Source: Vicinamibacteria bacterium
GTDB lineage: Bacteria; Acidobacteriota; Vicinamibacteria; Fen-336
Direction of reading: 5' to 3'
DNA: 64,000 nt
NCBI GenBank assembly: GCA_041481445.1
Contig: JBGPBV010000016.1
Span: forward strand, 12,432 to 76,431
The notes under the pieces: model-generated
What the model was told of the DNA's origin: nothing
What the model saw: only the letters and a program-made list of their open reading frames with translations
The model's database searches: none
Translations under genes and position numbers: made by a program
Shown: positions 127-45,698 of the stretch, one piece after another
Numbering within the stretch: position 1 is the first letter of the stretch
Layout: the number at the start of each line of letters is the position of its first letter

Positions 127-1236
127 GTGTACTGGACGGGCATGGCCGGCTCCCTGAACGACCTCCCCACGCCCGCCGTCCTCATCGACCTGGACGTGCT
201 CGAGCGCAACGTCCAGCGGATGGCAGAGGATGCGCGCGCCAAAGGCGTCCGCCTGCGGCCGCACGCCAAGACGCACAAGGTCCTCGAAGTCGGCCGGCTC
301 CAGCTCCGGGCGGGGGCGGCCGGGCTGACCCTGGCCAAGACCTCCGAGGCGGAGGTCTTCGCCGCCGCCGGCTTCGAGGACATCTTCCTCGGCTATCCCG
401 TGGTGGGCGCGGACAAGGCGCGACGGCTGCTCGCCCTGGCCGAGCGCGTGCGGATCCTGGTCGGCGTCGACTCCGTGGAAGGGGCGCGCACGCTGTCCGA
501 CGTGTTCGCCGCCGCCGGACGCCGCCTCGAGGTGCGGCTCAAGATCGACAGCGGCCTCCATCGCGTCGGGGTATTGCCGGAGCAGGCGGTGGGGATGGGC
601 CGCGCGGTCGCCGGGCTGCCGGGGTTGCGCCTCACGGGCGTGTTCACGCACGGCGGCCAGTCCTACGGCGAGACGAGCCGGGAGGGAGTCGCCGCCGTCG
701 GGCACCACGAGGGCGCGACGATGGCCGCGGTCGCGGACGCTCTGCGGGAGGCGGGGCTGCCCGTGGAGGAGGTCTCGGTCGGCTCGACTCCCACCGCCCG
801 CCACGCCATGGGGATGCGCGGAGTCACGGAATGCCGGCCCGGCACCTACGTCTACAACGACGCCTCCCAGGTCTCGCTCGGGGTGTGCGGCCTCGAGGAC
901 TGCGCGATCAGCGTCCTGGCGACGGTGGTCAGCGCGCCCGCCCCCGATCGCGCGGTGATCGACGCGGGCAGCAAGAGCCTCTCGAACGACCCCCTGCGGC
1001 CGCGCGCGGACGGCCACGGGTGGATCCGGGGACGTCGCGCCCGCGTGGCCCGGCTCAGCGAGGAGCACGGCGTCCTCGCCGTCGAGGAAGGCGAGCGGTT
1101 CCGGGTCGGGGAAAGGGTCCGCGTGCTGCCCAATCACGCCTGCGTGGTCTCGAACCTGTTCGACCGCGTCGTGGCCCACCGGGGAGAGAGCATCGAGGAG
1201 GAGTGGCGGGTGGCCGCGCGCGGCCGGGTGGAGTGA
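127..1236 (+). CDS. PLP-dependent D-serine/D-threonine deaminase- or aldolase-like enzyme (alanine-racemase-fold family)
   Basis: 369-aa ORF with a PHAKTHK lysine motif typical of alanine-racemase-fold PLP enzymes. An alternative start is at 145. The overlapping 58..1179(-) ORF is an Arg-rich frame artefact. Confidence 0.75.
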   Translation: MYWTGMAGSLNDLPTPAVLIDLDVLERNVQRMAEDARAKGVRLRPHAKTHKVLEVGRLQLRAGAAGLTLAKTSEAEVFAAAGFEDIFLGYPVVGADKARRLLALAERVRILVGVDSVEGARTLSDVFAAAGRRLEVRLKIDSGLHRVGVLPEQAVGMGRAVAGLPGLRLTGVFTHGGQSYGETSREGVAAVGHHEGATMAAVADALREAGLPVEEVSVGSTPTARHAMGMRGVTECRPGTYVYNDASQVSLGVCGLEDCAISVLATVVSAPAPDRAVIDAGSKSLSNDPLRPRADGHGWIRGRRARVARLSEEHGVLAVEEGERFRVGERVRVLPNHACVVSNLFDRVVAHRGESIEEEWRVAARGRVE

Positions 1237-1259
1237 GAGGCCGAGGCCCCTTGGCGTGA

Positions 1260-1463
1260 CTACCAGTCGAGCGGCTTGGGCGGCCGCTCGTACGCCGGCT
1301 TGGGCTTCCCCTCCGGTGTCTTCGTCTGCTTGAGTTGCTTGAGCTTCTGGTCCAGGGCGTCCCAGGTCTGCTCGTCCCGGGCCAGCGCCTCGTCCAGCCA
1401 GTCCCGGTAGGTCTTCTCTTTCGGTTCTTTCGAGGGGTCATCCTCGGGCATCGTCATCCTCAC
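1260..1463 (-). CDS. small charged hypothetical protein (about 63-67 aa)
   Basis: ORF with balanced K/E/D-rich composition, unlike GC-frame artefacts. The start is ambiguous (M1, M3 or M5). Confidence 0.4.
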   Translation of the reverse strand: MRMTMPEDDPSKEPKEKTYRDWLDEALARDEQTWDALDQKLKQLKQTKTPEGKPKPAYERPPKPLDW

Positions 1464-1643
1464 GGAACCACGCGGGCCTCGCCCGTGCCGCTCTCTTGGG
1501 GCGGCCCGGAGCGCGAACCCAGGGAATGTCGTGATCCAATCAGGCAGTACGTCCTTGTGCGATCAACGGTTTGTGTGGACGGTCACCCATCTTCACACCA
1601 ATTTACTTGACGCGTCATGTATTGTCGGACTAACGTACGCGGC

Positions 1644-2123
1644 ATGTCCCGGGTTCGGAGCGCCGTCCAGGAGGAGATCCGGCAGAGCCGGCCGTTCTCC
1701 TCGCCCTCCGAGGAGGGCGTGGTCGCGCTCGTGCGCACCGCGGACCTCCTGCGCCGCGCCCTGACCGGCGTGGTGGAGCCGCACGGGATCACGCTGCAGC
1801 AGTACAACGTGCTCCGCATCCTCCGCGGGGCCGGCCCCGAGGGGCTGCCCACGCTCGAGATCGCCGGCCGGATGATCGAGCACGCTCCGGGCGTGACGCG
1901 ACTGGTCGACCGGTTGCAGGCCAAGGGCCTGGTCCGGCGCCAGCGCTCGACGGAGGACCGCCGCGAGATCCGGTGCCGGATCGCGGCGGAAGGGCTCGAC
2001 CTCCTGGCGCGGCTCGACGGCCTGATGCAGGACGCCGCGCGGGAGTTCATGTCTCCGCTGGACGCCGAGGCGCTGGACCGCTTCATCCGCGACCTCGACG
2101 CGCTGCGCGCGGCCATCACGTGA
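1644..2123 (+). CDS. MarR-family transcriptional regulator
   Basis: Winged-helix MarR signature (LTLQQYNVLRIL...VTRLVDRLQAKGLVRR). ATG at 1644. Lies upstream of the YceI gene, a classic pairing. Confidence 0.85.
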   Translation: MSRVRSAVQEEIRQSRPFSSPSEEGVVALVRTADLLRRALTGVVEPHGITLQQYNVLRILRGAGPEGLPTLEIAGRMIEHAPGVTRLVDRLQAKGLVRRQRSTEDRREIRCRIAAEGLDLLARLDGLMQDAAREFMSPLDAEALDRFIRDLDALRAAIT

Positions 2124-2200
2124 GCCCGCGCGCCGAGGATCCCGGGAACGTCGTCGCCATCGCGGCCGGCCGCCTGCCGCCGCGCCATTCAAGGAGAGAA

Positions 2201-2803
2201 ATGATGATCCGTAAGCTGTCCCTCGCCGCCGCCGCCGCCTTCCTGGCCGCCTCCCCCGTCCTCGCCGACACCTGGGTGATCGACAAGAACCACTCGGAGA
2301 CCGGCTTCCAGATCCGCCACATGATGAGCAAGGTGCGCGGGCACTTCAACGACTACGCGGGCACGGTCGTCGTGGACCCGGCCAAGCCGGAGGCCGCCAC
2401 CGTGGAGTTCACCATCAAGGCCGCCACCATCGACACCGCCAACGAGAACCGGGACAAGGACCTGCGCAGCGCGAACTTCTTCGACGTCGAGAAGTTCCCC
2501 GAGATCAGCTTCAAGAGCACGAAGGTGAAGGCGGCGGGCAAGGACCGCTACGACGTCATCGGCACCCTGACCATGCACGGGGTCTCGAAGGAAGTGACGC
2601 TGCCCGTCCAGTACCTGGGCGTGGGCAAGGATCCCTGGGGCAACGAGAAGGCCGGCTTCTCCGCCGACGTCACCCTGAACCGCAAGGATTTCGGGATCAC
2701 CTGGAACAAGACTCTCGACAGCGGCGGCGTGCTGCTGGGCGACGACGTCTGGGTCTCCATAAACCTCGAAGCGGCAAAGAAGAAGGAGGCGGCCGCCAAC
2801 TGA
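2201..2803 (+). CDS. YceI-family periplasmic protein
   Basis: Starts MMIRKL with a signal peptide and has an AAGGAGAG RBS 6 nt upstream. Carries YceI motifs (HSETGFQIRHMMSKVRGHF, FPEISFKST, MHGVSKEVTLP). Confidence 0.85.
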   Translation: MMIRKLSLAAAAAFLAASPVLADTWVIDKNHSETGFQIRHMMSKVRGHFNDYAGTVVVDPAKPEAATVEFTIKAATIDTANENRDKDLRSANFFDVEKFPEISFKSTKVKAAGKDRYDVIGTLTMHGVSKEVTLPVQYLGVGKDPWGNEKAGFSADVTLNRKDFGITWNKTLDSGGVLLGDDVWVSINLEAAKKKEAAAN

Positions 2804-2854
2804 CGGAATAGCGCCCCGGGCTGGGCCGTACTCCTGAGGCAAGGAGGCCGGCCC

Positions 2855-3823
2855 ATGCCCTCGCCGCTCGCCGCTCCCACCCCTGTCCCGCTCGGCCCTC
2901 GACGGGCCGGCGCGGCGGCCGTCATCGCGTTGTCGTTCCTTCTCACCCCTTCCGCTCGGGCCGGCGTCTGGCAGGCGAGCGGGTCCCTCGTCGACCTCTC
3001 GGTCGAAGTCGAGGGATCCGCGGCGCCGCTCTATCCGGCACGCGACGGCTCCGGCCGCTACTACCTCGAGGCCCGCAGCGGCTCCGCGTACACCGTCCGC
3101 GTGGCCAACCGGAGCTCCCGGCGCCTCGGCGTCCTGCTCGCCGTCGACGGGCTCAACGCGATCAGCGGCGAGCGTGAGCCCGGTCCGACCGCGGCCGGCC
3201 GGCCGGGCCGCATGTACGTCATCGATCCCTGGGACGAGGTGAGGGTGCGCGGCTGGCGCACGTCGCTCGAGGACGTGAGGCAGTTCACGTTCGTGGACGA
3301 GCGGGCGTCGTACGCGACCCGGAGCGGACGCGCGAACGGGAAGATGGGCTGGATCGAGGCCTGGGTCTATCGCGAGCGCTTCGGCCCGCGGGTCTCGCGC
3401 GGCGGGACGGAGCCATGGGACCGCGGGTCGCGGCCGGAGGACCAGGCGGAGGAGCGCCCGCGGCGCGACATCCCCCCGCCCGACGCCGCCGGCACCCTCC
3501 CCGGCGCCGCTCCAGAAGGCGCGGCTCCCCCCGCCAGCGCGCCCCCGGCCGACGCCGACGCGTCCAGGGAGCGCGCCGAAGGCCTCCGCAAGGCGCAGCC
3601 CTCCGAAGAGTCGTACCCCGGCACCGGCTGGGGCAGCCGCGCCTGGGACCCCGCGACGGTGGTGAGCTTCGTGGCCGAGGCCCGCCCCTCCGACGGCGTG
3701 ACCATCCGCTACGAGTACGCGCCCGCGCTCCGCGCCCTCGGCCTGATCCCGCCGCCGTGGCATCGCGACCGCCTGGCCGAGCGCGAGCGCGGCGAGGGAT
3801 TCGCGCGGCCGCCCGCCTGGTGA
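2855..3823 (+). CDS. secreted hypothetical protein with a Pro/Ala/acidic low-complexity linker
   Basis: N-terminal signal peptide (AAAVIALSFLLTPSARAGV). Coding-like composition. No recognisable family. Confidence 0.55.
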   Translation: MPSPLAAPTPVPLGPRRAGAAAVIALSFLLTPSARAGVWQASGSLVDLSVEVEGSAAPLYPARDGSGRYYLEARSGSAYTVRVANRSSRRLGVLLAVDGLNAISGEREPGPTAAGRPGRMYVIDPWDEVRVRGWRTSLEDVRQFTFVDERASYATRSGRANGKMGWIEAWVYRERFGPRVSRGGTEPWDRGSRPEDQAEERPRRDIPPPDAAGTLPGAAPEGAAPPASAPPADADASRERAEGLRKAQPSEESYPGTGWGSRAWDPATVVSFVAEARPSDGVTIRYEYAPALRALGLIPPPWHRDRLAERERGEGFARPPAW

Positions 3824-24049: not shown

Positions 24050-24841
24050 TTACTGCAAAGTCCGGACACCGGCGGCGGCGCTTTCGATCAGTGACGCGAC
24101 GGCCCGGGGCTGCGACACGAAGATGGCGTGGCTGCCCTTGACCTCGACGACCGTCGAACCCGCGCGCCGGGACATGGCGCGCTGCGCGTCGGGTGGGATC
24201 ATCTTGTCGTCGGTGGCGACCAGGTACCAGCTGGGCTTGGTCTTCCACGCCGGCTCGCTGATGCTGCCGCTCAGCGCGGCCACGCCCCACGGAACCTGGG
24301 AGTCGGCCATGAACGCCGCCCTTTCCACGGCCACGTCCGCCGCGAAGGAGGCGGGGAACTTCGCCTTGTCGAGGAATAGATAGCCGTCCTGCGGCGGCAG
24401 GATCGGCGGCACGGGGGCGCCCGGCACCGGGTCCTTGATGAGGGTGGACACCGACTCGCCCTTGTCGGGCGCGAAGGCAGCGATGTACACGAGCCCCGCA
24501 ATCTTTGGATCGTTCCCGGCTTCGGTAATCACCACTCCGCCGTACGAGTGGCCGACGAGAACCACGGGGCCGTTCTGCGCGGCAACAATGCGCCTGGTTG
24601 CGGCGACATCGTCGGCGAGCGATGTCGTCGGATTCTGAACGATGGCGACGGTGTAGCCGTCCTTCTTCAGGGCGTTGTAGACGGCCTCCCAACCGGAGCC
24701 GTCTACGAAGCCCCCGTGCACGAGAACGACGGTCCTCACGCTCGTCGGATGGCTCGTCTGTGCCATCAGAACCTCGGCCGAACCCAACAGCAACGCAACG
24801 CCGAACACAGCTGCCGCAAACGTTCCTTGCCTCATGACCAA
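24050..24841 (-). CDS. secreted alpha/beta hydrolase
   Basis: Signal peptide. HGG oxyanion motif (VVLVHGGF) and nucleophile elbow GHSYGG. Confidence 0.8.
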   Translation of the reverse strand: MVMRQGTFAAAVFGVALLLGSAEVLMAQTSHPTSVRTVVLVHGGFVDGSGWEAVYNALKKDGYTVAIVQNPTTSLADDVAATRRIVAAQNGPVVLVGHSYGGVVITEAGNDPKIAGLVYIAAFAPDKGESVSTLIKDPVPGAPVPPILPPQDGYLFLDKAKFPASFAADVAVERAAFMADSQVPWGVAALSGSISEPAWKTKPSWYLVATDDKMIPPDAQRAMSRRAGSTVVEVKGSHAIFVSQPRAVASLIESAAAGVRTLQ

Positions 24842-24889
24842 GTCTCCTTTTCAATTCCTCGCGGCCGCGAACGTCGGCGACCAACGGCA

Positions 24890-24995
24890 AAGTACGCTTC
24901 GGCGCGCCCTCGCACATCACGACATCGAAGGCTTTTGCGCTACCCCGCGAGCGGAGTCTCGCGATACCCAATTCGAGGGAGTCAGGAGACTCGTC
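24890..24995. repeat. intergenic cassette F (shares the 30-mer CATCACGRCATCGARGGCTTTTGCSCTA with G, plus GCGATACCCAAT)
   Basis: Compared with 30335..30430. Lies upstream of alpha/beta hydrolase 24050..24841. Confidence 0.5.
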
Positions 24996-25060
24996 AAGGC
25001 TCTCACCGCGAAGGCACGTGTCCTCGCCACGTTCTCGTGCGCGGAGGCGAGGGAAGCCGG

Positions 25061-25690
25061 CTAGAGCTGGATGATTCCCCGCCGTATCGCGATCGCGACC
25101 GCTTCCGTCCGGTCGCTGGCCCCGAGCTTTTCCATGACGTGCTTGACGTGAACCTTGACCGTCTCTTCGGAGATGAACAGGTGCTCCGCGATATCACGGT
25201 TCCGGTTCCCTCCCGCCACCTGGCGCAGCACCTCCACTTCACGCGCAGTGAGGGTCTCGTCGCTGAGATGCTCGGCCAGGTGAGCCACGATCTCGGGAGG
25301 GATCCGCTTCTTTCCCGCGTGGACCTGGCGGATCCCGTCGAGCAGCTCCTTGGGGGGCATGCTCTTCAGGAGGTACCCGCGCGCTCCCGCCTCCAGGGCG
25401 CGCTGGATCTCGACGTCGCCCTCGAAGGTGGTGAGGATGACGATGCGGGCGTCCGGGAACTCCGAGCGGATCGCCGCCATGGCGTCGATCCCGTTCATGT
25501 CCGGGAGGCGAAGGTCCATCAGCGTGATGTCTGGCCGGTGCTGGCGGAACCGCTCGAGGCCGTCCCGGCCGTTGCTGGCCTCCGCAACCAGCTCCATGTC
25601 GAGCTGGCTCCTGATCATCGCGGAGATCCCCTCGCGCAGGAGCGGATGGTCGTCGACACTGAGGACGCGGATGGGGGCAGTTGCGCTCAT
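25061..25690 (-). CDS. NarL/LuxR-family two-component response regulator
   Basis: ATG at 25690. REC domain (VLSVDDHPLLREG...DITLMDLRLPDM). LuxR HTH (LTAREVEVLRQVAGG.NRDIAEHLFISEETVKVHV). Confidence 0.85.
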   Translation of the reverse strand: MSATAPIRVLSVDDHPLLREGISAMIRSQLDMELVAEASNGRDGLERFRQHRPDITLMDLRLPDMNGIDAMAAIRSEFPDARIVILTTFEGDVEIQRALEAGARGYLLKSMPPKELLDGIRQVHAGKKRIPPEIVAHLAEHLSDETLTAREVEVLRQVAGGNRNRDIAEHLFISEETVKVHVKHVMEKLGASDRTEAVAIAIRRGIIQL

Positions 25691-26526
25691 GGACCTGTCT
25701 CCCGTCGGCTCGATGTGCTGGATTGCTCGTGGAAGGCCGCTGCTTCCGGAACGGAGAGCTCGACCTCCCTGCGGAGGCGCTCGTCGTCCCCGCATCGGAG
25801 ACCGTGGAGCACGCGACGGGCTTCATCGGTCGCGCGTCCCATGACGGCGAGGACCTGTTCGAGACGCGTGCGGTCCGGCGAGCCCTCGGGCAGGTGATTC
25901 ACGGCCAGATGGAGCTGCATCGACACGCTCAGGAATCCCTGGAGGAGCGTATCGTACAGCTCCTGCGCGATTCTCGCGCGCTCCGCCAGCCGTTCGTCCG
26001 AGCGCGCGTCGAGCTCCCGCGCGAGCTGCCGCAAGCGATAGCGGTGGAGACCGACCGCTCCCAGCACCGCCACCGCGAGGCAAGCGACCCAGAACCACGG
26101 GGCCTTCCACCAAGGCGGCGCGCCGTCCCTGACGGTGAGAGCGGCCACCCCGCCTCCGATCCCGGGGAGGGACGGCGTTCGCGCGAGGGGACGGTACTCC
26201 GCATCGACGAGGAGGGCAGCATACTCCGTTCCGAGGTGCGTCGAGCTCCTCCAGGTGGAGTCGGCCTGGATGGCCGTGAAGGGCTGGTCCGCGAACGGCT
26301 GCACGTACCAGTCTCCGCTCCGGGCATAGAGGACGATCCGTTGCCCGCTGCGCGCGCCCGACACCCGGCCCGCGATGGCTCCGAGGCGGACGGTGCCGCC
26401 CTCGTCCGCCGGGGGCACCTGGCTCAACTTGACGACGGGTCCGGCGGCCATCGCCGGCGGACGCGTCCTCGCAAGGAGGATGACGGCGCAGAGGAGGGCG
26501 ATTGTGCTCGCCCTCGGCCACGTCAT
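25687..26526 (-). CDS. membrane pseudo-sensor: periplasmic domain plus TM plus HisKA_3-like dimerisation domain with His->Tyr, and no ATPase domain
   Basis: ATG at 26526 overlaps the upstream TGA (ATGA). The signal/TM, periplasmic domain and second TM are followed by ERLAERARIAQELYD, where the codon is TAC (Y) at the conserved His. The ORF then ends 50 aa later without a HATPase_c domain. Its stop overlaps the response-regulator ATG. Confidence 0.65.
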   Translation of the reverse strand: MTWPRASTIALLCAVILLARTRPPAMAAGPVVKLSQVPPADEGGTVRLGAIAGRVSGARSGQRIVLYARSGDWYVQPFADQPFTAIQADSTWRSSTHLGTEYAALLVDAEYRPLARTPSLPGIGGGVAALTVRDGAPPWWKAPWFWVACLAVAVLGAVGLHRYRLRQLARELDARSDERLAERARIAQELYDTLLQGFLSVSMQLHLAVNHLPEGSPDRTRLEQVLAVMGRATDEARRVLHGLRCGDDERLRREVELSVPEAAAFHEQSSTSSRRETGP

Positions 26527-28208
26527 TCCTTCAGCACCTGGTGCACGAGGGCGATGGCCGTCGATCCCTCCCCCACCGCCGACGCCACCCGCTTCTGGTT
26601 GCCGCTGCGCACGTCGCCCACGGCGAAGACGCCGGGAAGGCTCGTCTCCAGGAGGTGCGGGGCCCTCGTCAGCGGCCACTCCGCCGTCCGCAGGTCGTCC
26701 GGCGAGAGATCGGGGCCCGTCTTGATGAATCCCTTGTCGTCGCGCGTGACGCAGTCCTCGAGCCAGCGCGTGGTGGGCTCCGCGCCCGTCATCACGAACA
26801 CGTGCCCGACGTCGTTTCGCTCCATCACCATCGTCTGGTTGTCGCGCCAGAGCACGGCCTCCAGACGATCGCCGCCCTCGAGGCTCACGATCTCCGCGCG
26901 TGTCCGGAGCTCGATGTTGGGGCTCTGCTCGATGCGGCGGATCAGGTAGCGCGACATGGTCTCCGCCAGCCCGGCCCCGCGCACGAGCATGGACACGCGC
27001 CGTACGGACGTGGAGAGGAACACGGCGGCCTGCCCCGCCGAGTTCCCGCCCCCCACGACCACCACCTCTTCTCCCTGGCAGAGCTGGGCTTCCATGGGGG
27101 TCGCGCCGTAATACACGCCCGCGCCCTCGAAGCGGGCCAGGTCGGCCACGGCCAGCTTCCGATAGGCAGCGCCGGTGGCGATCACGATGGTCCGCGCGGG
27201 CACCGTCGTCCCGTCCTCCAGCTCGATCGAGTAGGGCTTGCGCGTGCAACGAAGGGCCCGCGCCCCCTTGGCCACCGTCACCTGGGCCCCGAACTTCTGG
27301 GCCTGGCTGTACGCGCGCCCGGCCAGCTCCGCGCCCGAGATGCCCATGGGGAAGCCGAGGTAGTTCTCGATCCGAGAGCTCGAGCCCGCTTGCCCTCCGG
27401 GGGCCGTGGATTCGAGGACGAGGACGTCGAGACCTTCGGACGCGCCGTACACGGCCGCGGCCAGACCCGCCGGCCCCGCCCCCACGATGACGGTGTCGCG
27501 CACGTGGGCGTGGTCGATGGGCGCGTTGAGGCCGAGGCAGTCCGCGATCTGCTGGTTGGTCGGGTTGCGGAGGACGGTGCGGCCGCCGCAGATGAGCACG
27601 GGCACGTCCCCGACGCCGATGTGGAAGCGATCGAGGAACTCCTGCGCCTCCGCGTCCTGCTCGAGGTCGATGTACGAGATCGGATGCCCGTTGCGGGTGA
27701 GGAATTCCTTGATGCGGAGGGTGCCCGCGGAATGGCGCGAGCCCAGGAGGACCACGTCCGCGGAGCCGCGGGCGATCAGCTCCAGCCGGCGCAGGATGAA
27801 GGCCCGCATGAGAAGGTCGCTCAGCTCGCTGTCCGTCTGCACCAGCGCCATGAGCTGGGGGCGGTCCACCTCGATGACTTCCCCGCTCTCGCGCGCGCGC
27901 GTCCTGGCCAGACCGCGCCGGCCGGAGAGGATGGCCATCTCCCCCGTGAACGACCCGACTCCGTGCACCACGATGATCTCTTCGGCGTCGCCGACGCCCC
28001 TCACCGTCTCGACGCTGCCGGCGGTGATCACGAAGATCCGCGCGCTGTCGCCCTGCCCGAGAAGGATCTCGCCCGCCTCCACCCGCCGCACCCGCCCGTG
28101 CGCGGCCACCCGCGCGATCTGCGCCGGGGTCAGCCGGGGAAAGACGTGCTCGAGGGGAGAGTTGAGCCGGAGCGTCGTGGTGGCGCCGGCGGTCAGGGCG
28201 CTGGTCAT
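26523..28208 (-). CDS. cyclic-nucleotide-binding domain protein fused to degenerate glutaredoxin-like and thioredoxin-reductase-like (FAD/NAD(P)-binding) domains
   Basis: cNMP-binding beta-roll (GEILLGQGD...FTGEMAIL). Glutaredoxin-like segment with GSRHSAG in place of CPYC. TrxR-like fold (IVGAGPAGLAAAVY, VVVVGGGNSAG, GVFAVGD) where GATPMEAQLC replaces the CATC redox disulfide. Confidence 0.8.
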   Translation of the reverse strand: MTSALTAGATTTLRLNSPLEHVFPRLTPAQIARVAAHGRVRRVEAGEILLGQGDSARIFVITAGSVETVRGVGDAEEIIVVHGVGSFTGEMAILSGRRGLARTRARESGEVIEVDRPQLMALVQTDSELSDLLMRAFILRRLELIARGSADVVLLGSRHSAGTLRIKEFLTRNGHPISYIDLEQDAEAQEFLDRFHIGVGDVPVLICGGRTVLRNPTNQQIADCLGLNAPIDHAHVRDTVIVGAGPAGLAAAVYGASEGLDVLVLESTAPGGQAGSSSRIENYLGFPMGISGAELAGRAYSQAQKFGAQVTVAKGARALRCTRKPYSIELEDGTTVPARTIVIATGAAYRKLAVADLARFEGAGVYYGATPMEAQLCQGEEVVVVGGGNSAGQAAVFLSTSVRRVSMLVRGAGLAETMSRYLIRRIEQSPNIELRTRAEIVSLEGGDRLEAVLWRDNQTMVMERNDVGHVFVMTGAEPTTRWLEDCVTRDDKGFIKTGPDLSPDDLRTAEWPLTRAPHLLETSLPGVFAVGDVRSGNQKRVASAVGEGSTAIALVHQVLKE

Positions 28209-29131
28209 GGAGCGGGTGACGCGGAGGCGTCGTCGAGGAATGCCGTCAGCTCCGGGATCACCTTGGCCGGCGCCTCGTCGATGAGCCAGTGTCCGGACCC
28301 CGGAACGATGACGCCCTTGACGTTGGTCGCGGCCAGGCGTGTCTGGTCGATGAGCCCCTGTCCGGAGGCCTTCTCACCGGTCAGGACGAGGACCGGCATC
28401 GTGAGCGGCGTGCGAGCGAGTTGCGCGAAGTCCTGGGCGTCCTTCTCGAAGTTGCGGAAGTACTCGAAGCCGGCGCGCACGCCGCCGGGCTGGGCGAAGG
28501 CGGCAGCGTAGAGCCGGCGGTCGGCCTCCGAAACGGAATGGTTGCGGTCCGCGGCGAAGTCGTTCCAGAAGTGCTCGAGGTACGTCCGCTCGCGGCCCGT
28601 GACCAGGGCCAGCGGAGTCTCGCCGTAGAAGTGGAAATGCCAGAGGTCGCGCATCAGCCAGACGCTCTTCCAGTCCCCGATTCCGGGAAGGAAGGCGTCC
28701 ATCAACACGAGGCGGTCGGTGCCCGCCGGGAACTGCGCCGCGTACCCGTAGGCGACCATGAGGCCGATGTCGTGGCCGACCACGCTCACCCGATCGAAGC
28801 CAAGCGAGCGCGTGAGCTCGTGGACGTCCACGGCCATGCTCTTCTTGTCGTATCCGCCTTCCGGCTTGGCGGAGTCGCCGGCTCCCCTCAGGTCCGGCAC
28901 GATCACGGTGTGCCGCTGGGCCAGGAGCGGCATGATCGGCCGCCACATGAGTCCCGTCTGGGCGAACCCGTGCAGGAGGACCACGGCCGGGCCCTTGCCG
29001 CCGATCGAGTAGTGCAGCCGGACCCCGTTCACGTCCGCGAACCGCTCCGAGAATCCGGCGGTGGGCGCCGCCTTGGCGGCCGGCGCCGGTGCGGACGCGA
29101 GGAGGACGGCGACGGCCAGGCTCATGAGCAT
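28205..29131 (-). CDS. secreted alpha/beta hydrolase (epoxide-hydrolase / haloalkane-dehalogenase-like)
   Basis: Signal peptide. LLHGF and GHDIGLMVAYGYA nucleophile motif. The stop overlaps the downstream ATG (ATGA). Confidence 0.8.
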   Translation of the reverse strand: MLMSLAVAVLLASAPAPAAKAAPTAGFSERFADVNGVRLHYSIGGKGPAVVLLHGFAQTGLMWRPIMPLLAQRHTVIVPDLRGAGDSAKPEGGYDKKSMAVDVHELTRSLGFDRVSVVGHDIGLMVAYGYAAQFPAGTDRLVLMDAFLPGIGDWKSVWLMRDLWHFHFYGETPLALVTGRERTYLEHFWNDFAADRNHSVSEADRRLYAAAFAQPGGVRAGFEYFRNFEKDAQDFAQLARTPLTMPVLVLTGEKASGQGLIDQTRLAATNVKGVIVPGSGHWLIDEAPAKVIPELTAFLDDASASPAP

Positions 29132-29288
29132 CTTGTGGCCCTCTCACGGCACCGCAGGCTGCGGGTGCAGGCAGGAAGCGTAGCGCCCCCACCGCCCGAA
29201 ATCGTCCCCTCATCCAGGGGTTGTGGGGTACCACGATGGATCCATGGGGGACTACCACCATCGTGGTACCTCGAGGTTTCCGAGGCGG

Positions 29289-30122
29289 CTATGACTTGAG
29301 GAACGCCAGCAGGTCGGCGTTGATGGTGTCGGCCTCGGTCGTGGGCATGCCGTGCGGAAAGCCCTTGTAGGTTTTCAGCGTGCCGTTCCTCAGCAACTTT
29401 GCCGACAGTGGTGCCGAATCGGCATAGGGCACGATCTGGTCGTCATCGCCATGCATCACCAGGACGGGCACGGTGATCTTCTTCAGGTCTTCGGTGAAGT
29501 CCGTCTGGGAGAAGGCGACGATGCCGTCGTAGTGCGCCTTTGCGCCTCCCATCATGCCCTGGCGCCACCAATTCCAGATCACGCCCGGAGAGGGTTTCAC
29601 TCCAGGCCGGTTGTAACCGTAGAACGGTCCAGCCGGCAGATCGTAATAGAACTGGGCTCGGCTGGCGGCGAGCTGTGCCTGAAGCCCGTCGAACACGTCC
29701 TTGGGCAGCCCGCCGGGATTGGCCGGCGTCTTGACCATCAGCGGCGGCACCGCGCTGATGATCACCGCTTTTGCCACCCGGCTTTCGCCGTGGCGGGCCA
29801 GGTAGTGCACCACTTCGCCGCCGCCGGTCGAGTGGCCGACGTGCACTGCCCCCTTGAGGTCGAGATGTGCGGTCAGCGCCGCCAAGTCGTCGGCGTAATG
29901 ATCCATGTCATGCCCGCCACCGGTCTGGCTGGAGCGGCCATGGCCGCGCCGGTCATGGGCGATGACGCGATAGCCGTGCGCGAGGAAGAACAGCATCTGC
30001 GCGTCCCAATCATCCGCGCTCAGCGGCCAGCCGTGGCTGAAGACGACGGGCTGCCCCTTGCCCCAGTCCTTGTAGTAGATCTGCGTGCCGTCCGTGGTCG
30101 TGATCGTCGACACGTCGTTCAT
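29289..30122 (-). CDS. alpha/beta hydrolase of the non-heme haloperoxidase/esterase family
   Basis: ATG at 30122 ([21 protein letters not shown]). VFSHGWPLS and GHSTGGGEV motifs. Confidence 0.8.
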
Positions 30123-39682: not shown

Positions 39683-42600
39683 TCAGTGCCCCGCGGAATC
39701 CCCAGATCGGGGTATTTGGCGCGTCCACGATCGGGTCAGGGCCCTCAGCCAGCCGGCTGGACCGCGTGAGGACGCGGCCGGAAAGGCCACGTGCCCGGGA
39801 ACCGTGAGCTCCACTTCGGTACCGGCTCCGGGGCGGCTCCACAGCCGCAACCGGCCGCCGATCCTTTCCGACCGCTCGCGCATCCCCGAGAGTCCCCAGT
39901 GGCCGTCGCGCCCCGCGCGGAGGACCTCGGCGTCGATCCCCTTCCCGTCGTCGCGCACGAGGACACGGAGCCGGCGGGCCTCGCGTTCGACTCCGACCTC
40001 GATACGGGTCGCCCCCGAGTGCCGGAACGCGTTGATGAGCGCTTCCCGTCCGATGCGGTAGACCTCGTCGCGGATCATCGGATGCAGGCGGCGGGGCGGC
40101 CCTCCGCCGATCACGCGGAAGGCAACGTCGTCCCTCACTCCGAGCTCGTCCCGGATGCGCGAGAACGACTGCTCGAGATCGTCGAGGCTGCTCTGGGACG
40201 AGCGGAGGCCCCGCACGGCGTTCCGGCCCTCTTCGATGACCCGCTTGATCAGCTCGAGGACCCCGGCCAGGCTTCCCCTCTCGGGCGAGCCTGGCGGCAT
40301 GCGGTCCACCGCCAGGTGGAGCTGCATCGAAGCGCTCAGGAACCCCTGCAGCAGCGTGTCGTGCAGCTCCTGCGCGATGCGCGTCCGCTCGGCCAGCCGC
40401 TCCTCGAACCGGACGTTCAACTGGCGCGTCAAGCGATGGAGCCGCATCCGGTAGAGGCCGAGCAGGATCAGCGCGCCGGCCAGCGCGCTCGTCAAGCGAA
40501 ACCATCGCGTCTGCCAGACCACGGGTTCGATGTCGAATCCGAGCGCGGCCTCGGCGCCGTTCCAGAAGCCCTCGCTGTTCGAGGCCATGACTCGGAACTG
40601 GTAGGCGCCGGGCGCGAGGTTGGTGTACACGGCCTCCCGCGCGGAGAAGGGCTCGCTCCAGCCGCGATCGAATCCGTCGAGCCGATAGCGGAATCGGATC
40701 TCGTCCGGGGCGCCCAGGCTGACTCCGGAATAGCCGAGGGTGACGCGCCGCGATCCCGCGGGTATCGCGTGCGTCCCCTCCAGATCGATGAGGTTGCCGT
40801 CGGCGGACAGGGCCTCGATGCGGGCCACGACGGGAGCCGCGCTGCTGGTGGCGCGCACGGGATCGACGACGGAGAGGCCGCGGCTCATCGAGAACCAGAT
40901 CCGGCCGAACAGGTCGGCCACCACCGACCGGTGCCGGCGGGCGACCTCCGTGCTGTACAGGCCATCGGAGGGGCCGTACTCCGCCACTTCCGCGCGTCCC
41001 GGGGAGGGGTCGAGGAGCTGGTCACGCCGGGCCCGCAGCACCCGCGTCGAGGTGGCGATCCAGAGCCATCCCTGGCGGTCCTCCGCCAGCCCGAAGATCG
41101 GCTCGTGGAGCGACCCTGGCACGCCGCCCGGCACCCGGATCCCTTCCGGACCGAGCCGCGCGAGCCCGTCACCGGTCCCTATCCAGAGGCCGCCCGCGGA
41201 GTCCTCCAGGAGGCAGCTCACGTCGTCGGACGGCAATCCGTCGCGGGTCGTGAAATATCGCCAGTGACCCTTCGAGAGCGCGCCGAGGCCGCTCGGCGTG
41301 GCGAACCACGTCGTGCCGTCGGCGGTGTCCACGATCGACACGACGGTGTTGGAGACGAGGCCACTCTCGGAGTCGTAGGTCGTGAACCGGCCATCCCGGA
41401 AGCGGCTGGCGCCGCTCTCGAGCGTTCCTGCCCAGACGGTGCCGTCGCGGCTCTCGTGGACGGCGTACACCGTGTCGTCGACGAGGCCGTCCGCGGTCCG
41501 GTACGTCCGAGCCACGACGGCGCCGCCCCTGGTGACCAGGCGCGTCAGCCCGCCCGCTTTCCGGCCGACCCAGAGACCGTCCTTGCCGCCCGCGAGCGAG
41601 TAGACCACGTCCCCCGGTAGCCCGTCCGCGGTGACCTTGCCCACCCGCCCGTTGTGGAGCCAGAAGAGCCCGCCGCCCAGGGGCGCGAACCACGTGCGTC
41701 CCTCGGCGTCGACGTGGATCGGCCCGCTGCTCTCCGACGGCAGCCCTTCGGCGGGCCCGTAGGTGGTGAAGCTGGTGTCGCGGAGGCGCTCGAGGCCACG
41801 GGGAGTGCCGACCCACAGGCTCCCTTCGCGGTCTTCGAAGAGGGCGGTCACCGCGACACGGGCCGCCGGATCCTCGAAGCGGGAGACGCCGCGCGCGTTC
41901 ACGCGCAGCAGGCCCTCGGCGGTGCCGATCCAGACGTTCGACTCGCGATCCACCGTCATCGTCGACGCCACCACCCGTCGCAGACCAGGGGCGAGCCCGT
42001 CCGCGCTGATCCCGCTTCCGTTCCAGCGCACCATGCCTTTCGGCGTGGCCACCCACACGTCTCGGGCGCCCACGGCGAGCACGGCGCTGATGGTCCGATC
42101 GGGAAGTCCCTGCCTCACCGCGATGACCTGTCCCTGGACGGCACAGAAGAGGCCTTCGCCCTGCGTTCCCATCCAGATGCGGCCGTCCCCCGCTTCCGTC
42201 ATCGAGGTCACGGGAGACCGCGCGGGCAGGGAGGCGCGTGGGGCGAGGCTCTCCACGCGCTCCCCACTCCAGCGCAGGGGGCCGTTCACGATGCCGGCCA
42301 TCATCATGGTGCCGTCGGGAGCGCGCGCCATCGCGGTGATCGCATCCTCCATCGTCTCCAGGGAGGGCACGCTCTCGAACCGGCGGTCGCGATAGCGCAG
42401 GACCCGGGGCCCGCCGAGCCTGACCCACATGGTGCCGCGCCCGTCCACGGTCAGCCCCAGGACCTGGGTGATCGACGGCGACGCGGAGCCCGGCTCCGGA
42501 AAGCGGCGGAAGGCCGAGCCGTCGAAGCGGTACAGTCCCCGGTCGGTTCCGAGCCAGAGGTATCCGTCCGCGGTCTGGCTGATGGCCTGGACGGTTCCCC

Positions 42601-42754
42601 CCGGGAATCCGCGGTCGGCGCCCCAGCGTTCCCGCACGTACTGGGACATCGTCCGGTCGGGGTCGATGGCCTGGGCGGTGCCGGCGAGGCACGTCACCGC
42701 CACCGCGGCCCAGAGCCCAACCCGTCGACGCGCCGCGCCACCTCCGAGCCTCAC
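39683..42754 (-). CDS. sensor histidine kinase with periplasmic two-component-regulator beta-propeller (Y_Y_Y-type) domain, HisKA_3 and HATPase_c
   Basis: GTG start at 42754 overlaps the upstream TGA (GTGA). Signal peptide and repeated propeller blades (DG.LW.GT..GL.R). TM followed by ERLAERTRIAQELHDTLLQG (H-box), then N-box, G1 and G2 (DDGKGID, GLSGMRER). Confidence 0.8.
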   Translation of the reverse strand: MRLGGGAARRRVGLWAAVAVTCLAGTAQAIDPDRTMSQYVRERWGADRGFPGGTVQAISQTADGYLWLGTDRGLYRFDGSAFRRFPEPGSASPSITQVLGLTVDGRGTMWVRLGGPRVLRYRDRRFESVPSLETMEDAITAMARAPDGTMMMAGIVNGPLRWSGERVESLAPRASLPARSPVTSMTEAGDGRIWMGTQGEGLFCAVQGQVIAVRQGLPDRTISAVLAVGARDVWVATPKGMVRWNGSGISADGLAPGLRRVVASTMTVDRESNVWIGTAEGLLRVNARGVSRFEDPAARVAVTALFEDREGSLWVGTPRGLERLRDTSFTTYGPAEGLPSESSGPIHVDAEGRTWFAPLGGGLFWLHNGRVGKVTADGLPGDVVYSLAGGKDGLWVGRKAGGLTRLVTRGGAVVARTYRTADGLVDDTVYAVHESRDGTVWAGTLESGASRFRDGRFTTYDSESGLVSNTVVSIVDTADGTTWFATPSGLGALSKGHWRYFTTRDGLPSDDVSCLLEDSAGGLWIGTGDGLARLGPEGIRVPGGVPGSLHEPIFGLAEDRQGWLWIATSTRVLRARRDQLLDPSPGRAEVAEYGPSDGLYSTEVARRHRSVVADLFGRIWFSMSRGLSVVDPVRATSSAAPVVARIEALSADGNLIDLEGTHAIPAGSRRVTLGYSGVSLGAPDEIRFRYRLDGFDRGWSEPFSAREAVYTNLAPGAYQFRVMASNSEGFWNGAEAALGFDIEPVVWQTRWFRLTSALAGALILLGLYRMRLHRLTRQLNVRFEERLAERTRIAQELHDTLLQGFLSASMQLHLAVDRMPPGSPERGSLAGVLELIKRVIEEGRNAVRGLRSSQSSLDDLEQSFSRIRDELGVRDDVAFRVIGGGPPRRLHPMIRDEVYRIGREALINAFRHSGATRIEVGVEREARRLRVLVRDDGKGIDAEVLRAGRDGHWGLSGMRERSERIGGRLRLWSRPGAGTEVELTVPGHVAFPAASSRGPAGWLRALTRSWTRQIPRSGDSAGH

Positions 42755-43800
42755 GGGAGGTATTCGAACTTCTCGATCACGACCTCCGTCCCGCGCTCCA
42801 GGGCCCGCGCGCTCCGGCGGAAGACATAGAGGTTCATGCGCACCGTCTCGTTGCCCGGGGAGGGCACGCCCGACGTGAACGTGTGCTCGGCGACCGCCGG
42901 CGCGCGGTTCTCGGGGCCAGCCCCGCGGACGGTCCGGGCCATGAGGCGGCCGGGCTCCCAGCGGAGCCCGTGGGTCAGGACGCCCGGAGGCGCCACGAAG
43001 GGCCAGACGTTCGCGGCGACGTAATAGGGCTGGACCACGTACTGCGCGTTCTTCGCCGCCGGCTCGCCCCACCGGCTGACCTCGATGTCCATCTCGCGAT
43101 GGTTCTCGCTCGCGGCCGGTCCGTCCCAGGTGAACAGGGTCAGTACCACCGCCGGCTCCAGTTGCGACACGTCGCGCACGACGAACCGGTACGAGCCATA
43201 CCCGAGCCGGCGCGTGAGGCGCACTTCTGCGCAGGTCCAGCGCGGCGCCTCTCCCCCGATGCGGAGGTGCATCGCTCCGCTTCCGTCCGTCCAGGCGTTG
43301 GCGGGATCGTAGTCGTTGGTGCCGCCCCGGTCGCTGGGGGCGGCGCGGGCGATCCATTCGTATCCGCTGAACTGGATCGTGTGATGTTGGGCGCGCGCCG
43401 AGGGGTCACCCGGTGCGATCGTGACGGCCACGACGCCGCCGCCGGCAGGCGGCAACGTCTCCGTGGAGAGCGGCGGACGATATCCGGCATCGACGAGGAG
43501 GGCCGCGTACTCCGTCCCCAGGTGGGTGGAGCTCGTCCAGGTCGAGTCGGCACGGACCTCCGTGAACGGCTGCCGGGCCTCCGGCTGGACCCACCACACC
43601 CCGCTCTTGGCGAACAACACGATGCGCTGCCCGCGCTGCGCGCCGACCACGCGGCCTTCGATCACGTCGAGCGTGTCCGGTCCGCCCTTGTCCGCGGGCG
43701 GGATCCTCGTGAATTGGATCGAGGGCCCACCGTCGCCCTGGCGGCCGGCGCAGCCGGTCAGGAGGAGCCACGGTACGACCAGCAGGAGCCTGAGCCTCAC
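42751..43800 (-). CDS. lipoprotein: N-terminal domain of unknown function plus C-terminal GH16-like (concanavalin-type glycoside hydrolase) domain
   Basis: Lipobox LLLTGC. The N-domain is paralogous to the pseudo-sensor's periplasmic domain. The C-terminal domain has a GH16-type E-x-D-x-E catalytic motif (REMDIEVSRWG). Confidence 0.6.
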   Translation of the reverse strand: MRLRLLLVVPWLLLTGCAGRQGDGGPSIQFTRIPPADKGGPDTLDVIEGRVVGAQRGQRIVLFAKSGVWWVQPEARQPFTEVRADSTWTSSTHLGTEYAALLVDAGYRPPLSTETLPPAGGGVVAVTIAPGDPSARAQHHTIQFSGYEWIARAAPSDRGGTNDYDPANAWTDGSGAMHLRIGGEAPRWTCAEVRLTRRLGYGSYRFVVRDVSQLEPAVVLTLFTWDGPAASENHREMDIEVSRWGEPAAKNAQYVVQPYYVAANVWPFVAPPGVLTHGLRWEPGRLMARTVRGAGPENRAPAVAEHTFTSGVPSPGNETVRMNLYVFRRSARALERGTEVVIEKFEYLP

Positions 43801-43996: not shown

Positions 43997-44869
43997 GTGA
44001 CGTCCAACAGGGTCAGCAACGATGGCATCCCCGATCACATGCCGCCGTTGCTGCGGCGGCGCCTCGAGCGTGCGGAGGCCTGGGCCGGCAACGAGAAAAC
44101 GGCGGCTCTCGTCGAGATGCCAGGTCTGGTGGCATGGGTGCATTCCGTGCCCAGCGACTCCAGTACGGGTGGCGGCGACGTCCACTACCTGTCCGTCTGC
44201 CCCAGCGGGATCGTCTCCCGGATCGCCCTTGCCGACGTGAGCGGGCACGGACAGGCCGTGATGAGCGTCGGTGAGAAGCTGCGTGAGCTCATGCTCCGAT
44301 ACCTCACGGCGCTGGAACAGGTCGGGCTCATGCGGGATCTGAGTCGAGCGGTCCGGGAAGAACTGGACGGCGTGCACTACGCCACGATGGTAGCGGTCGG
44401 ATGGCATGGCCGCCGCCGCCTGCTCGTCGTGACGAATGCGGGGCACCCCCCGCCGTGTTGGTACCGCGCGGCCCTTGGTGAATGGAGTTGGATTGGAGCG
44501 CGACACGCCAGCGAGCGAGGGCGGACGGTCGGCGTTCCCCTCGGCCTGCTCGCCGACAGCAGCTACGACCGCGCGGTACTCAAGCCCGAGATAGGCGACC
44601 TGGTGGTGCTGTACACGGACGGGGTCTTTGAAGCCTCGAACGAGGCGGGAGACGAGCTGGGTCGCGACGGGCTGATGAGGATCGCGCGCGGGTTGGACGC
44701 GAGCTCGGCCGAGGCTTTCGGAAGCCAGTTGGCGGCCGCGCTGCGCCGCTTCCGCGGACGCGCGGAACCCACCGACGATCAGACGATCATCGTCCTGCAG
44801 AGGGTGGCTCCCGAGACGTCGCCAAGTGGATCCCGGCCTGACCCACGGAAACGGGCCGCGCGGAAATAG
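43997..44869 (+). CDS. PP2C-family (SpoIIE-like) serine/threonine phosphatase, stand-alone
   Basis: A GGAGGG RBS precedes a GTG at 43997; an alternative ATG is at 44039. SpoIIE-like metal-binding motifs ALADVSGHG and YTDGVFEA. Confidence 0.7.
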   Translation: MTSNRVSNDGIPDHMPPLLRRRLERAEAWAGNEKTAALVEMPGLVAWVHSVPSDSSTGGGDVHYLSVCPSGIVSRIALADVSGHGQAVMSVGEKLRELMLRYLTALEQVGLMRDLSRAVREELDGVHYATMVAVGWHGRRRLLVVTNAGHPPPCWYRAALGEWSWIGARHASERGRTVGVPLGLLADSSYDRAVLKPEIGDLVVLYTDGVFEASNEAGDELGRDGLMRIARGLDASSAEAFGSQLAAALRRFRGRAEPTDDQTIIVLQRVAPETSPSGSRPDPRKRAARK

Positions 44870-45026
44870 CTCCCCGCCCCTCCCCCTAACGAGGTATGCG
44901 CAGGCCCCTCCATTGCGTGGGGCGGAAACGACCCGATTGCGTGATGCGCGCGCGGCGGCCGGCCCGCTAGCATCCGGCGTTCGCTGCGCAACCGGACCGC
45001 GCAGGGTTCGAGAGGAGGCAAAGAGC

Positions 45027-45698
45027 ATGACGGCCAGACCCATCGTGTTCGTCGTCGACGCCGACGTCTCCGTGCGTGAGTCCCTGGAGCTGCTGATCGA
45101 CCGCAGTGGCTGGCAGCCGAGGACGTTCGCGTCGGCGCCGGAGTTCCTGGCTCAGGCGCGTGTCCCCGCTCCGAGCTGCATGGTGCTCGACGTCGCTCTC
45201 CCGGGCCTCAGCGGCCTCCACCTGCAGAAGCTCGTCGCCGACCGGACCGACATGCCGATCATCTTCCTCACCGGCTCCGGCGACGTGGCCATGACCGTCC
45301 AGGCCATGAAGGCGGGCGCCGTGGAGTTCCTGACCAAGCCGTTCCGTCCCGACGTGCTCGTTGGCGCCATCCGCGAAGCGCTCGAGCGCAGCTGGCAGGC
45401 ACTGGCGCGGGAGACGGCGCTGAAGTCTCTCCGTGAGTCCTACGCGTCCCTCAGCCGCCGCGAACGGGAAGTGATGGCCCTGGTCGTCGCCGGGCTCCTG
45501 AACAAGCAGGTCGGGGGCGAGCTCGGCATCAGCGAGATCACCGTCAAGGCGCACCGCGGCCAGGTGATGCGGAAGATGCAGGCCGACTCCCTCGCCGCCC
45601 TGGTGAAGATGGCGGCGAGACTCGACCTTCCCGCCGCCTGGCCGGCGGAGCCGGTTCGCCCGGTCGCGGTGACCGCCTATGGCCAGTTGTCCCTGTGA
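45027..45698 (+). CDS. FixJ/LuxR-family response regulator
   Basis: A GAGGAGG RBS precedes the ATG at 45027. REC domain (IVFVVDAD...CMVLDVALPGLSG). LuxR-type HTH (SRREREVMALVVAGLLNKQVGGELGISEITVKAHR). Confidence 0.85.
   Translation: MTARPIVFVVDADVSVRESLELLIDRSGWQPRTFASAPEFLAQARVPAPSCMVLDVALPGLSGLHLQKLVADRTDMPIIFLTGSGDVAMTVQAMKAGAVEFLTKPFRPDVLVGAIREALERSWQALARETALKSLRESYASLSRREREVMALVVAGLLNKQVGGELGISEITVKAHRGQVMRKMQADSLAALVKMAARLDLPAAWPAEPVRPVAVTAYGQLSL

Follow-up and report, generated by a model that had tools for sequence, protein, structure and literature searches.

A Tyr-for-His HisKA_3 sensor without an ATPase domain and its clade in Acidobacteriota

The window analysed here, a 64,000-nucleotide stretch of the genome of a Vicinamibacteria bacterium (Acidobacteriota; GenBank assembly GCA_041481445.1, contig JBGPBV010000016.1, positions 12,432 to 76,431), contains a gene for a 279-residue membrane sensor. 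In this sensor, tyrosine (Tyr191) occupies the phospho-acceptor position of the HisKA_3-type dimerization and histidine phosphotransfer (DHp) domain, and the catalytic and ATP-binding (CA) domain, HATPase_c, is missing. Comparison with its homologs showed that the sensor is intact and maintained by selection, and that it belongs to a monophyletic acidobacterial clade of Tyr-for-His HisKA_3 proteins. On the evidence of alignment, its gene arose from a full-length ortholog of about 396 residues by an in-frame deletion that took out the CA domain. Since the protein has neither a phospho-acceptor His nor a compensating one, and is without an ATPase, it is predicted to be unable to autophosphorylate or to donate phosphate. 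An earlier note, made by reading the letters of the window, had described it as a DHp-only, kinase-dead membrane sensor coupled to a NarL-type response regulator. That description was supported, and neither the Tyr nor the absence of the ATPase turned out to be artefactual.

Architecture and origin of the sensor

The N-terminus of the sensor is a signal anchor. In the AF2/AlphaFold model of the protein (mean pLDDT 86.5), residues ~30-135 fold as an Ig-like beta-sandwich, the second transmembrane (TM) helix and DHp helix alpha-1 form one continuous helix spanning residues 143-211, a second helix (217-245) closes the hairpin, and residues 246-279 are predicted to be disordered, with a pLDDT of about 50. 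HisKA_3 (PF07730) matched residues 182-244 with 46.4 bits against a cut-off of 24 (E 5.8e-12). This was the sole Pfam match, and no HATPase_c was detected in the 279 residues by Pfam. A hidden ATPase was also sought by taking the CA domain from the most similar full-length ortholog as a query against the six-frame open reading frame (ORF) segments of at least 80 residues in the window, and only the propeller kinase described below was matched. Both searches bore out the claim of the earlier note that the ATPase domain is absent. The H-box reads IAQELYDTLLQ, the string quoted in that note (ERLAERARIAQELYDTLLQGFLSVSMQLHLAV) is present, and direct reading of the DNA confirmed the reported TAC codon for Tyr in place of His. 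The ORF had been said to stop about 50 residues beyond the Tyr; it actually ends 88 residues past Tyr191 and about 34 past the end of the DHp. Of the attributes of a functional kinase, the sensor thus has a HisKA_3 DHp, a DxxxQ motif and an adjoining gene for a NarL-family regulator, and lacks the phospho-acceptor His and HATPase_c. The ratio of nonsynonymous to synonymous substitution rates (dN/dS) in the DHp hairpin was 0.04-0.30.

A homolog search covering 5.8 billion protein clusters returned more than 1300 homologs of the sensor. The nearest of them (P0002-P0014, 72-86% identity) are about 396 residues long and share its periplasmic domain, TM helix and HisKA_3 domain, followed by HATPase_c. 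The sensor aligned with these full-length proteins end to end save for one gap of about 117 residues, which corresponds to the entire CA domain, and the last 26 residues beyond the gap (EVELSVPEAAAFHEQSSTSSRRETGP) matched the last strand and the tail of the full-length proteins. It is because the alignment is complete except for this gap, with the tail retained, that we derive the gene from a full-length ortholog by deletion. In a DNA alignment with locus L001, the left edge of the junction, gagcgcctc, consists of the ERL codons just past the DHp, and the right edge consists of the (G)RLR...GTEVELSVP codons of the CA-domain end. The same 279-residue allele was found in two assemblies with one residue different (T8I). 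The usual marks of a pseudogene, namely a broken frame, a premature stop or neutral evolution, were not observed in the sensor gene: the deletion preserves the frame, the ORF is uninterrupted, the couplings to neighbouring genes are kept and dN/dS is below 1. The earlier note had proposed to look for an intact His and ATPase in orthologous loci. The nearest relatives keep HATPase_c, yet every one of P0002-P0014 carries Tyr in its H-box.

The sensor had also been interpreted as a chimera, put together from paralogs of the genes for the propeller kinase and a GH16-like lipoprotein, which lie 15 kb away. This origin was rejected, since the identity to the two local genes is 46% and 62%, whereas the orthologs of about 396 residues with the same architecture are 81-86% identical over the length of the sensor. 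The arrangement of N-domain, TM helix and HisKA_3 is moreover common to more than 1300 homologs and is therefore widespread. As to the likenesses that had prompted the idea, the near-identity of the H-box to that of the propeller kinase held for helix alpha-1, and the TM and DHp regions together are 46% identical over 136 residues. The N-domain is indeed shared with the lipoprotein, at 62% identity over 110 residues rather than about 70%. From these comparisons the architecture of N-domain, TM helix, HisKA_3 and HATPase_c is judged to be ancestral and widespread, and the two local genes, 13-17 kb away, are judged merely to share ancient domains with the sensor.

The Tyr clade and repeated loss of the ATPase domain

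To place the sensor among its relatives, 117 homologs, 52 with Tyr and 65 with His at the phospho-acceptor position, were aligned. The Tyr proteins formed a single clade in a neighbour-joining tree. Position 191 is Tyr in 52 of 52 clade members and His in 65 of 65 members of the sister group, and H191Y is the only position at which both clades are completely fixed, each for its own residue. The further diagnostic differences are conservative (D/E, L/V, V/I), and neither a compensating His nor a catalytic clade-specific change was found among the aligned homologs. The codons at this position were TAC (17 copies) and TAT (one copy) for Tyr and CAC (85) and CAT (20) for His, so that a single transition accounts for the replacement. 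Judging from identities to the window protein that drop to about 50-60%, the Tyr clade is old. D192 and Q196 of the DxxxQ motif are 100% conserved within it, and all positions of helix alpha-1 are at least 75% conserved, most of them at least 84%. In the full-length Tyr proteins, the Asn/His of the N-box and the DxGxG of the G1 box are intact. On the other hand, the G2 box and ATP lid, GHWGLSGMRER in the His clade, reads G(D/G)(C/G)GL(P/A)GMR(K/E)R in the Tyr clade (positions 343-352 of P0004), and the missing His-Trp pair of this lid may relate to the loss of autophosphorylation.

Two members of the Tyr clade (P0031 and P0035) bear NCBI names that place them in Vicinamibacteria. Among the GTDB species-representative genomes returned, no Tyr-clade gene was present; these genomes yielded only His-clade relatives with 49-55% identity. 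The His-type relatives belong mainly to Blastocatellia and Pyrinomonadaceae. CA-less, DHp-only forms also occur in the His clade (L059:3937-4723; proteins P0050, P0085, P0087 and P0119), where they keep the His except in P0119, which has Gln in its place. In another group of about 20 His-clade proteins (for example P0049, P0057, P0066 and P0069), the C-terminal region is of full length, but the N, G1 and G2 boxes are unrecognisable and Pfam detected no HATPase_c. The whole sensor family seems to be prone to loss of kinase function.

Within the Tyr clade, the window protein is accompanied by eight other CA-less clusters at 90% identity (P0015, P0017, P0020, P0024, P0027, P0028, P0030 and P0034), and no more came to light when the homolog search was repeated from a short form. 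Six of the eight were looked up on their contigs, where they proved to be complete ORFs with a stop codon, preceded by a TrxR-like gene and followed by a gene for a 209-residue regulator wherever the contig reaches far enough. In the protein tree (500 bootstrap replicates), the window protein grouped with full-length P0002-P0005 in 100% of replicates, and the other short forms grouped with full-length P0016, P0018 and P0021 in 92%. These other short forms were monophyletic in 0 of 500 replicates, and P0015 and P0024 paired with full-length P0018 in 85%. The junction and tail of the window gene are clearly unlike those of the other short forms, and P0017 retains 19-22 extra nucleotides on the left. 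The remaining short forms have similar breakpoints (L164-L168), so that the number of losses beyond two rests on the protein tree rather than on the junctions. We conclude that the CA domain was lost independently at least twice, and probably three or more times.

The deletions share one feature. Upstream of the regulator, the sequence GACGGGAGA followed by ATG is kept in 10 of 12 Tyr-clade loci, whether the sensor there is full-length or truncated, and none of the deletions removed the regulator start region; in the window, a GGGAG Shine-Dalgarno-like element lies within the tail at about 25699..25703. Conservation of the regulator start region explains the constant survival of a short C-terminal tail. 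Between short forms, dN/dS was 0.22-0.28 over residues 28-245 (0.13-0.30 in the DHp), compared with 0.21-0.26 between full-length pairs. These equal values indicate that the sensor domain and the DHp stayed under selection after the loss of the ATPase.

Gene neighbourhood and two-sensor clusters

The features of the sensor and of its neighbourhood are collected in Table 1. The ATGA overlap between the sensor gene and the gene for the NarL-type regulator, pointed out in the earlier note, is real, and a second ATGA overlap joins the sensor gene to the TrxR-like gene upstream. Among the 11 Tyr-clade loci with room for it, 10 have this TrxR-like gene as the immediate upstream neighbour of the sensor gene on the same strand, and in the remaining one, L086, the two genes diverge; of 81 His-clade loci, none has it there. 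Its product in the window has five Cys and no CxxC redox motif, and it scored 210 bits against an NCBIfam TrxR cut-off of 343. An Abhydrolase_1 gene is found upstream in loci L002 and L003 too. A scan of 24700..29500 for promoters and terminators gave no informative signal.

Table 1 Features of the sensor locus and of related loci (window positions unless a locus is named)
Feature	Position	Strand	Basis or remark
Alpha/beta-hydrolase gene	28205..29131	(-)	First of four genes chained by 4-nt ATGA overlaps
cNMP-binding TrxR-like flavoprotein gene, 561 residues, no CxxC	26523..28208	(-)	Pfam, NCBIfam; ATGA overlap with sensor gene
Sensor gene, 279 residues, Tyr-for-His, CA-less HisKA_3 protein	25687..26526	(-)	ORF translation, Pfam, AF2
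Periplasmic Ig-like beta-sandwich, residues 28-137	26116..26445	(-)	AlphaFold; domain common to the GH16 lipoprotein family
Second TM helix, about residues 143-165	26032..26100	(-)	Hydrophobic stretch WFWVACLAVAVLGAVGL; unbroken into DHp helix 1
HisKA_3 DHp hairpin, residues 176-245	25792..26001	(-)	Pfam PF07730, AF2
Tyr191 codon TAC at phospho-acceptor position	25954..25956	(-)	DNA read directly
D192-T-L-L-Q196, HisKA_3 DxxxQ phosphatase motif	25939..25953	(-)	Conservation; activity predicted from motif
Deletion junction E249-R-L / R-R / E254, about 117 codons gone	25765..25782	(-)	Protein and DNA alignment (L001)
Retained C-terminal tail, residues 254-279	25690..25767	(-)	Overlaps regulator ATG
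NarL/LuxR-type response regulator gene, 209 residues	25061..25690	(-)	Response_reg and GerE (Pfam); intact phospho-acceptor pocket
Propeller (Reg_prop/Y_Y_Y) HisKA_3 kinase gene	39683..42754	(-)	His and HATPase_c intact (Pfam)
Lipoprotein gene, Ig-like N-domain and GH16 catalytic domain	42751..43800	(-)	GTGA overlap with propeller kinase gene
L007 cluster, lipoprotein	L007: 140..709
L007 cluster, propeller kinase	L007: ~730..3728
L007 cluster, N-domain kinase	L007: 3965..5263
L007 cluster, regulator	L007: 5264..5893

The regulator gene follows the sensor gene in the Tyr and His clades alike. Across Tyr-clade loci the regulator is 89-96% identical, and its DD, D57, T and K residues are kept. 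From its residues the regulator is built for phosphorylation, yet its operon partner is predicted to be unable to supply the phosphate.

The earlier note had suspected a link between the sensor and the propeller-kinase locus, and independent support for it came from gene adjacency in relatives. In 11 of the 45 His-clade loci with enough upstream DNA, genes for a GH16-like lipoprotein, a propeller HisKA_3 kinase, an N-domain HisKA_3 kinase and the regulator follow each other on one strand (L007 in Table 1; the others are L005, L016, L034, L037, L051, L055, L058, L059, L103 and L133). In the Tyr-clade locus L086 (2950-6756), the order is Tyr sensor, regulator, lipoprotein and propeller kinase. 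Such clusters always combine one regulator with two sensors; in the window, about 13 kb separates the two halves, and no NarL-type regulator is encoded beside the propeller kinase. Helix alpha-1 of the DHp is 67-81% identical between propeller kinases and N-domain sensors, while alpha-2 and the hairpin loop are 37-60% identical. This synteny suggests a regulator common to the two sensors. A single further ORF of the window encodes a receiver domain (44826..45698, plus strand); it gave a weak NarL-type receiver match (E 9e-6), looks FixJ-like by eye and lies about 2 kb from the propeller kinase gene on the opposite strand.

The GH16-like character that had been attributed to the lipoprotein was upheld. 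Its top Foldseek matches are all GH16 proteins (prob 1.00, TMt 0.65-0.73), it matched PDB 1mac with an E of 7e-5, and its catalytic motif ExDxE reads EMDIE, with E236 and E240 invariant. The GH16 domain went unrecognised by Pfam and stayed below the NCBIfam cut-offs, and we assign the lipoprotein to GH16 as a divergent member, as judged from fold and motif. The protein has the lipobox LLTGC, and its stop codon overlaps the GTG start of the propeller kinase gene. Its family comprises more than 3800 acidobacterial proteins, mostly annotated as 'hypothetical'.

Possible roles and comparison with known systems

We favour a model in which the sensor is a kinase-dead phosphatase or binder of the regulator and the propeller kinase is the phosphodonor. 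The sensor would still dimerize and dock the regulator through its strongly conserved DHp, and it would be gated by the periplasmic Ig-like domain, which possibly binds glycans. It would most likely act as a dedicated phosphatase of the phosphorylated regulator through the invariant DxxxQ, and its minimum role would be that of a signal-dependent binder of the regulator. The phosphate on the regulator would come from elsewhere. The propeller kinase is the best candidate for the donor because of its near-identical docking helix, the lack of a nearby NarL-type regulator and its adjacency in relatives. Kinase and phosphatase roles would then be split between two sensors acting on one regulator, and after the loss of the His the CA domain would have become dispensable and have been discarded repeatedly. 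In HisKA_3 kinases, phosphatase activity needs the DxxxQ motif, whose Gln positions the hydrolytic water, and does not need the His (PMC3510030, PMC5231405, PMC12632262); the isolated DHp of EnvZ retains phosphatase activity (Zhu et al. 2000, as cited in PMC3510030). We hold the evolutionary and structural part of this model with high confidence and the phosphatase activity specifically with less, and we consider the model as a whole to be evenly balanced between right and wrong.

Several observations weigh against this model. The CA domain of full-length Tyr members is under purifying selection, with a dN/dS of 0.15-0.36 that is comparable to that of the sensor domain. This selection and the intact N-box and G1 box argue for a function of the CA domain in most members, and the CA domain therefore serves something that the DHp-only forms do without. 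No locus-specific co-evolution of the two DHp domains was detected, identity being 0.624 within loci and 0.622 between them. In the window lineage, dN/dS is about 0.5 (a three-point estimate from few substitutions), compared with 0.17-0.26 in two full-length sisters, and the changes T184A, A201V and D210N fall at conserved DHp positions; these could be mild relaxation or noise. In addition, both kinase and phosphatase activity are lacking in DivL, the one Tyr-for-His pseudo-kinase that has been studied well (PMC4211667). Domains without the His are also less frequent in HisKA_3 than in HisKA (PMC12632262), a point against phosphatase activity as a general role of pseudo-kinases.

The precedent of DivL leads to a different reading, in which the sensor is non-catalytic: the Tyr-DHp dimer would hold the regulator at the membrane, possibly in its phosphorylated form only, without dephosphorylating it, and the periplasmic signal would set how much of the regulator is free to bind DNA. 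DivL likewise has a conserved Tyr and neither activity, and its DHp binds DivK~P specifically (PMC4211667). The Tyr of our clade is strictly invariant and not merely non-His, which suggests a positive role of the side chain, and the high conservation of the DHp is also consistent with sequestration. The invariance of DxxxQ counts for phosphatase activity instead, although this motif is equally invariant in the kinase-competent His sister clade and its invariance may for that reason reflect docking only. Furthermore, the DHp-only protein has no further output domain, whereas DivL acts on CckA. We regard a purely sequestering sensor as unlikely, though well worth keeping in mind.

As the earlier note suggested, the sensor could also pair with the propeller kinase through their similar DHp domains or compete for the same periplasmic ligand; it would then be a dominant-negative or modulatory partner of that kinase or of some other HisKA_3 kinase, in the manner of RetS and GacS. 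In helix alpha-1 the sensor and the propeller kinase are almost identical, the periplasmic domain is common to the lipoprotein encoded beside that kinase, and the two gene pairs adjoin in relatives. However, heterodimers are made less likely by the low identity of alpha-2 and of the hairpin loop when the two kinds of sensor are compared, by the fact that most Tyr-clade loci do not have the propeller kinase next to the sensor, and by the invariant genomic partner, which is the translationally coupled regulator and not a kinase. Paralogous kinases are, moreover, usually insulated against heterodimerization, and we find this role improbable.

A further idea is that the window gene is a recently disabled remnant, with a deletion that is neutral or slightly harmful, whose ORF survives as an in-frame carrier of the ribosome-binding site of the regulator while the protein has no role. 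The raised dN/dS and the three DHp substitutions of the window branch would fit, as would the predicted disorder of the 26-residue tail, and the Shine-Dalgarno element and ATG of the regulator can by themselves explain the conserved 3' end. Against this, dN/dS is still below 1 and the allele is present in two assemblies; independent CA-less lineages persist across a dS of 0.3-0.6 under constraint like that of full-length forms; and the sensor domain and TM helix are intact, with all ATGA couplings kept. We therefore rate a roleless remnant as quite improbable. Phosphorylation of Tyr191 by the CA domain in full-length members, and in trans in the window protein, as a docking or regulatory mark would account for the invariant Tyr and for the conserved ATP-binding residues and purifying selection of the CA domain. 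Yet wild-type DivL shows no autophosphorylation, phosphotyrosine cannot feed a receiver Asp, and the CA domain was lost repeatedly with the constraint on the rest of the protein unchanged, which together make such a mark very improbable. Finally, an artefact in which CAC was misread as TAC and a missed frameshift hides the CA domain is refuted, and we give it practically no credence: the allele occurs in two assemblies, no CA remnant was found, and Tyr is present in all of about 52 clade members, with TAC or TAT in all 18 Tyr-clade gene copies whose DNA was read.

Returning to the favoured model of a kinase-dead phosphatase or binder, we put forward a wider and more tentative proposal, which we think could well be wrong: the Tyr clade may be an unrecognised class of ligand-gated, membrane-bound, DHp-only regulator phosphatases, derived from one of two regulator-sharing sensors in a GH16-linked glycan-sensing cluster by the change of His to Tyr and then by repeated loss of the ATPase. 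If this is true, a two-component sensor would have been divided in nature step by step, its kinase half and its phosphatase half ending up in different proteins that each receive their own input, and the DHp-only phosphatase class would be newly tied to an operon with a cNMP-binding flavoprotein.

Pseudo-histidine kinases are recognised but poorly sampled, and DivL is essentially the only Tyr-for-His case that is understood mechanistically. They are defined as histidine kinase homologs without one or more histidine kinase functions that are integrated in a two-component network (Collins and Childers, as given in PMC12632262). The sensor agrees with this definition in its homology, its catalytic losses, its dN/dS of 0.2-0.3 and its conserved operon with the regulator, its wiring being derived from synteny only. 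The earlier note had held that the arrangement is not a described system. Tyr-for-His pseudo-kinases such as DivL are known, as are His-less HisKA_3 domains, which make up 0.3% of that family (PMC12632262); a limited literature search turned up no account of a HisKA_3 clade in which Tyr consistently replaces His, nor of naturally occurring DHp-only transmembrane derivatives and their repeated origin by ATPase loss. The Tyr clade is a second, independent Tyr-for-His lineage, in another DHp family and another phylum. Kinase-competent relatives, Tyr proteins with the ATPase and Tyr proteins without it (of at least two origins) form a natural series, which bears on the role of the conserved Tyr, on whether a DHp alone serves as a signal-regulated phosphatase in nature, on the purpose of an ATPase in a dead kinase and on the split of kinase and phosphatase roles between two sensors; it introduces no new principle. 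It also points to a conserved GH16-associated module of two sensors and one regulator in Acidobacteriota, a major and poorly characterised soil phylum.

The closest known counterpart is DivL of Caulobacter crescentus (Tyr550), which resembles the sensor in its clade-conserved Tyr for His, in being kinase-dead but kept and in the use of the DHp as a regulator-docking surface (PMC4211667). DivL, an alphaproteobacterial protein, differs in its HisKA-type DHp, several PAS domains, retained CA domain and single-domain partner DivK, and it acts on CckA and has no phosphatase activity. The sensor, for its part, is an acidobacterial protein that combines a HisKA_3 DHp containing DxxxQ with a periplasmic Ig-like domain and a NarL-type DNA-binding partner, and it has neither PAS domains nor a CA domain. 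From these differences we take it to be an analog of independent origin and not a member of the DivL family. NarX and DesK share with the sensor the DHp family, the xDxxxQ context of the H-box and NarL-family regulator partners; however, they have kinase activity as well, and in their phosphatase state the CA domain is packed against the DHp, whereas the sensor has neither kinase chemistry nor a CA domain. The role proposed for the sensor recalls domain A of EnvZ, a CA-less DHp that dephosphorylates its regulator (Zhu et al. 2000, as cited in PMC3510030), and natural sensors can be net phosphatases, as is the bacteriophytochrome DrBphP of Deinococcus radiodurans (PMC8292422). In contrast to domain A, which is an engineered HisKA fragment, and to DrBphP, which retains the His and the CA domain, the sensor is a natural, membrane-anchored, His-less and DHp-only protein. 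The pair of RetS and GacS offers a further parallel, a signalling-defective sensor that modulates the pathway of another kinase, so that two sensors feed one output; RetS, however, acts by DHp heterodimerization and keeps its histidine kinase and receiver domains, while the conserved partner of the sensor is the regulator. Spo0B, ChpT and HK2 of M. tuberculosis are likewise DHp-type four-helix-bundle proteins without a working ATPase, but unlike the Tyr sensor they keep the His and relay phosphate.

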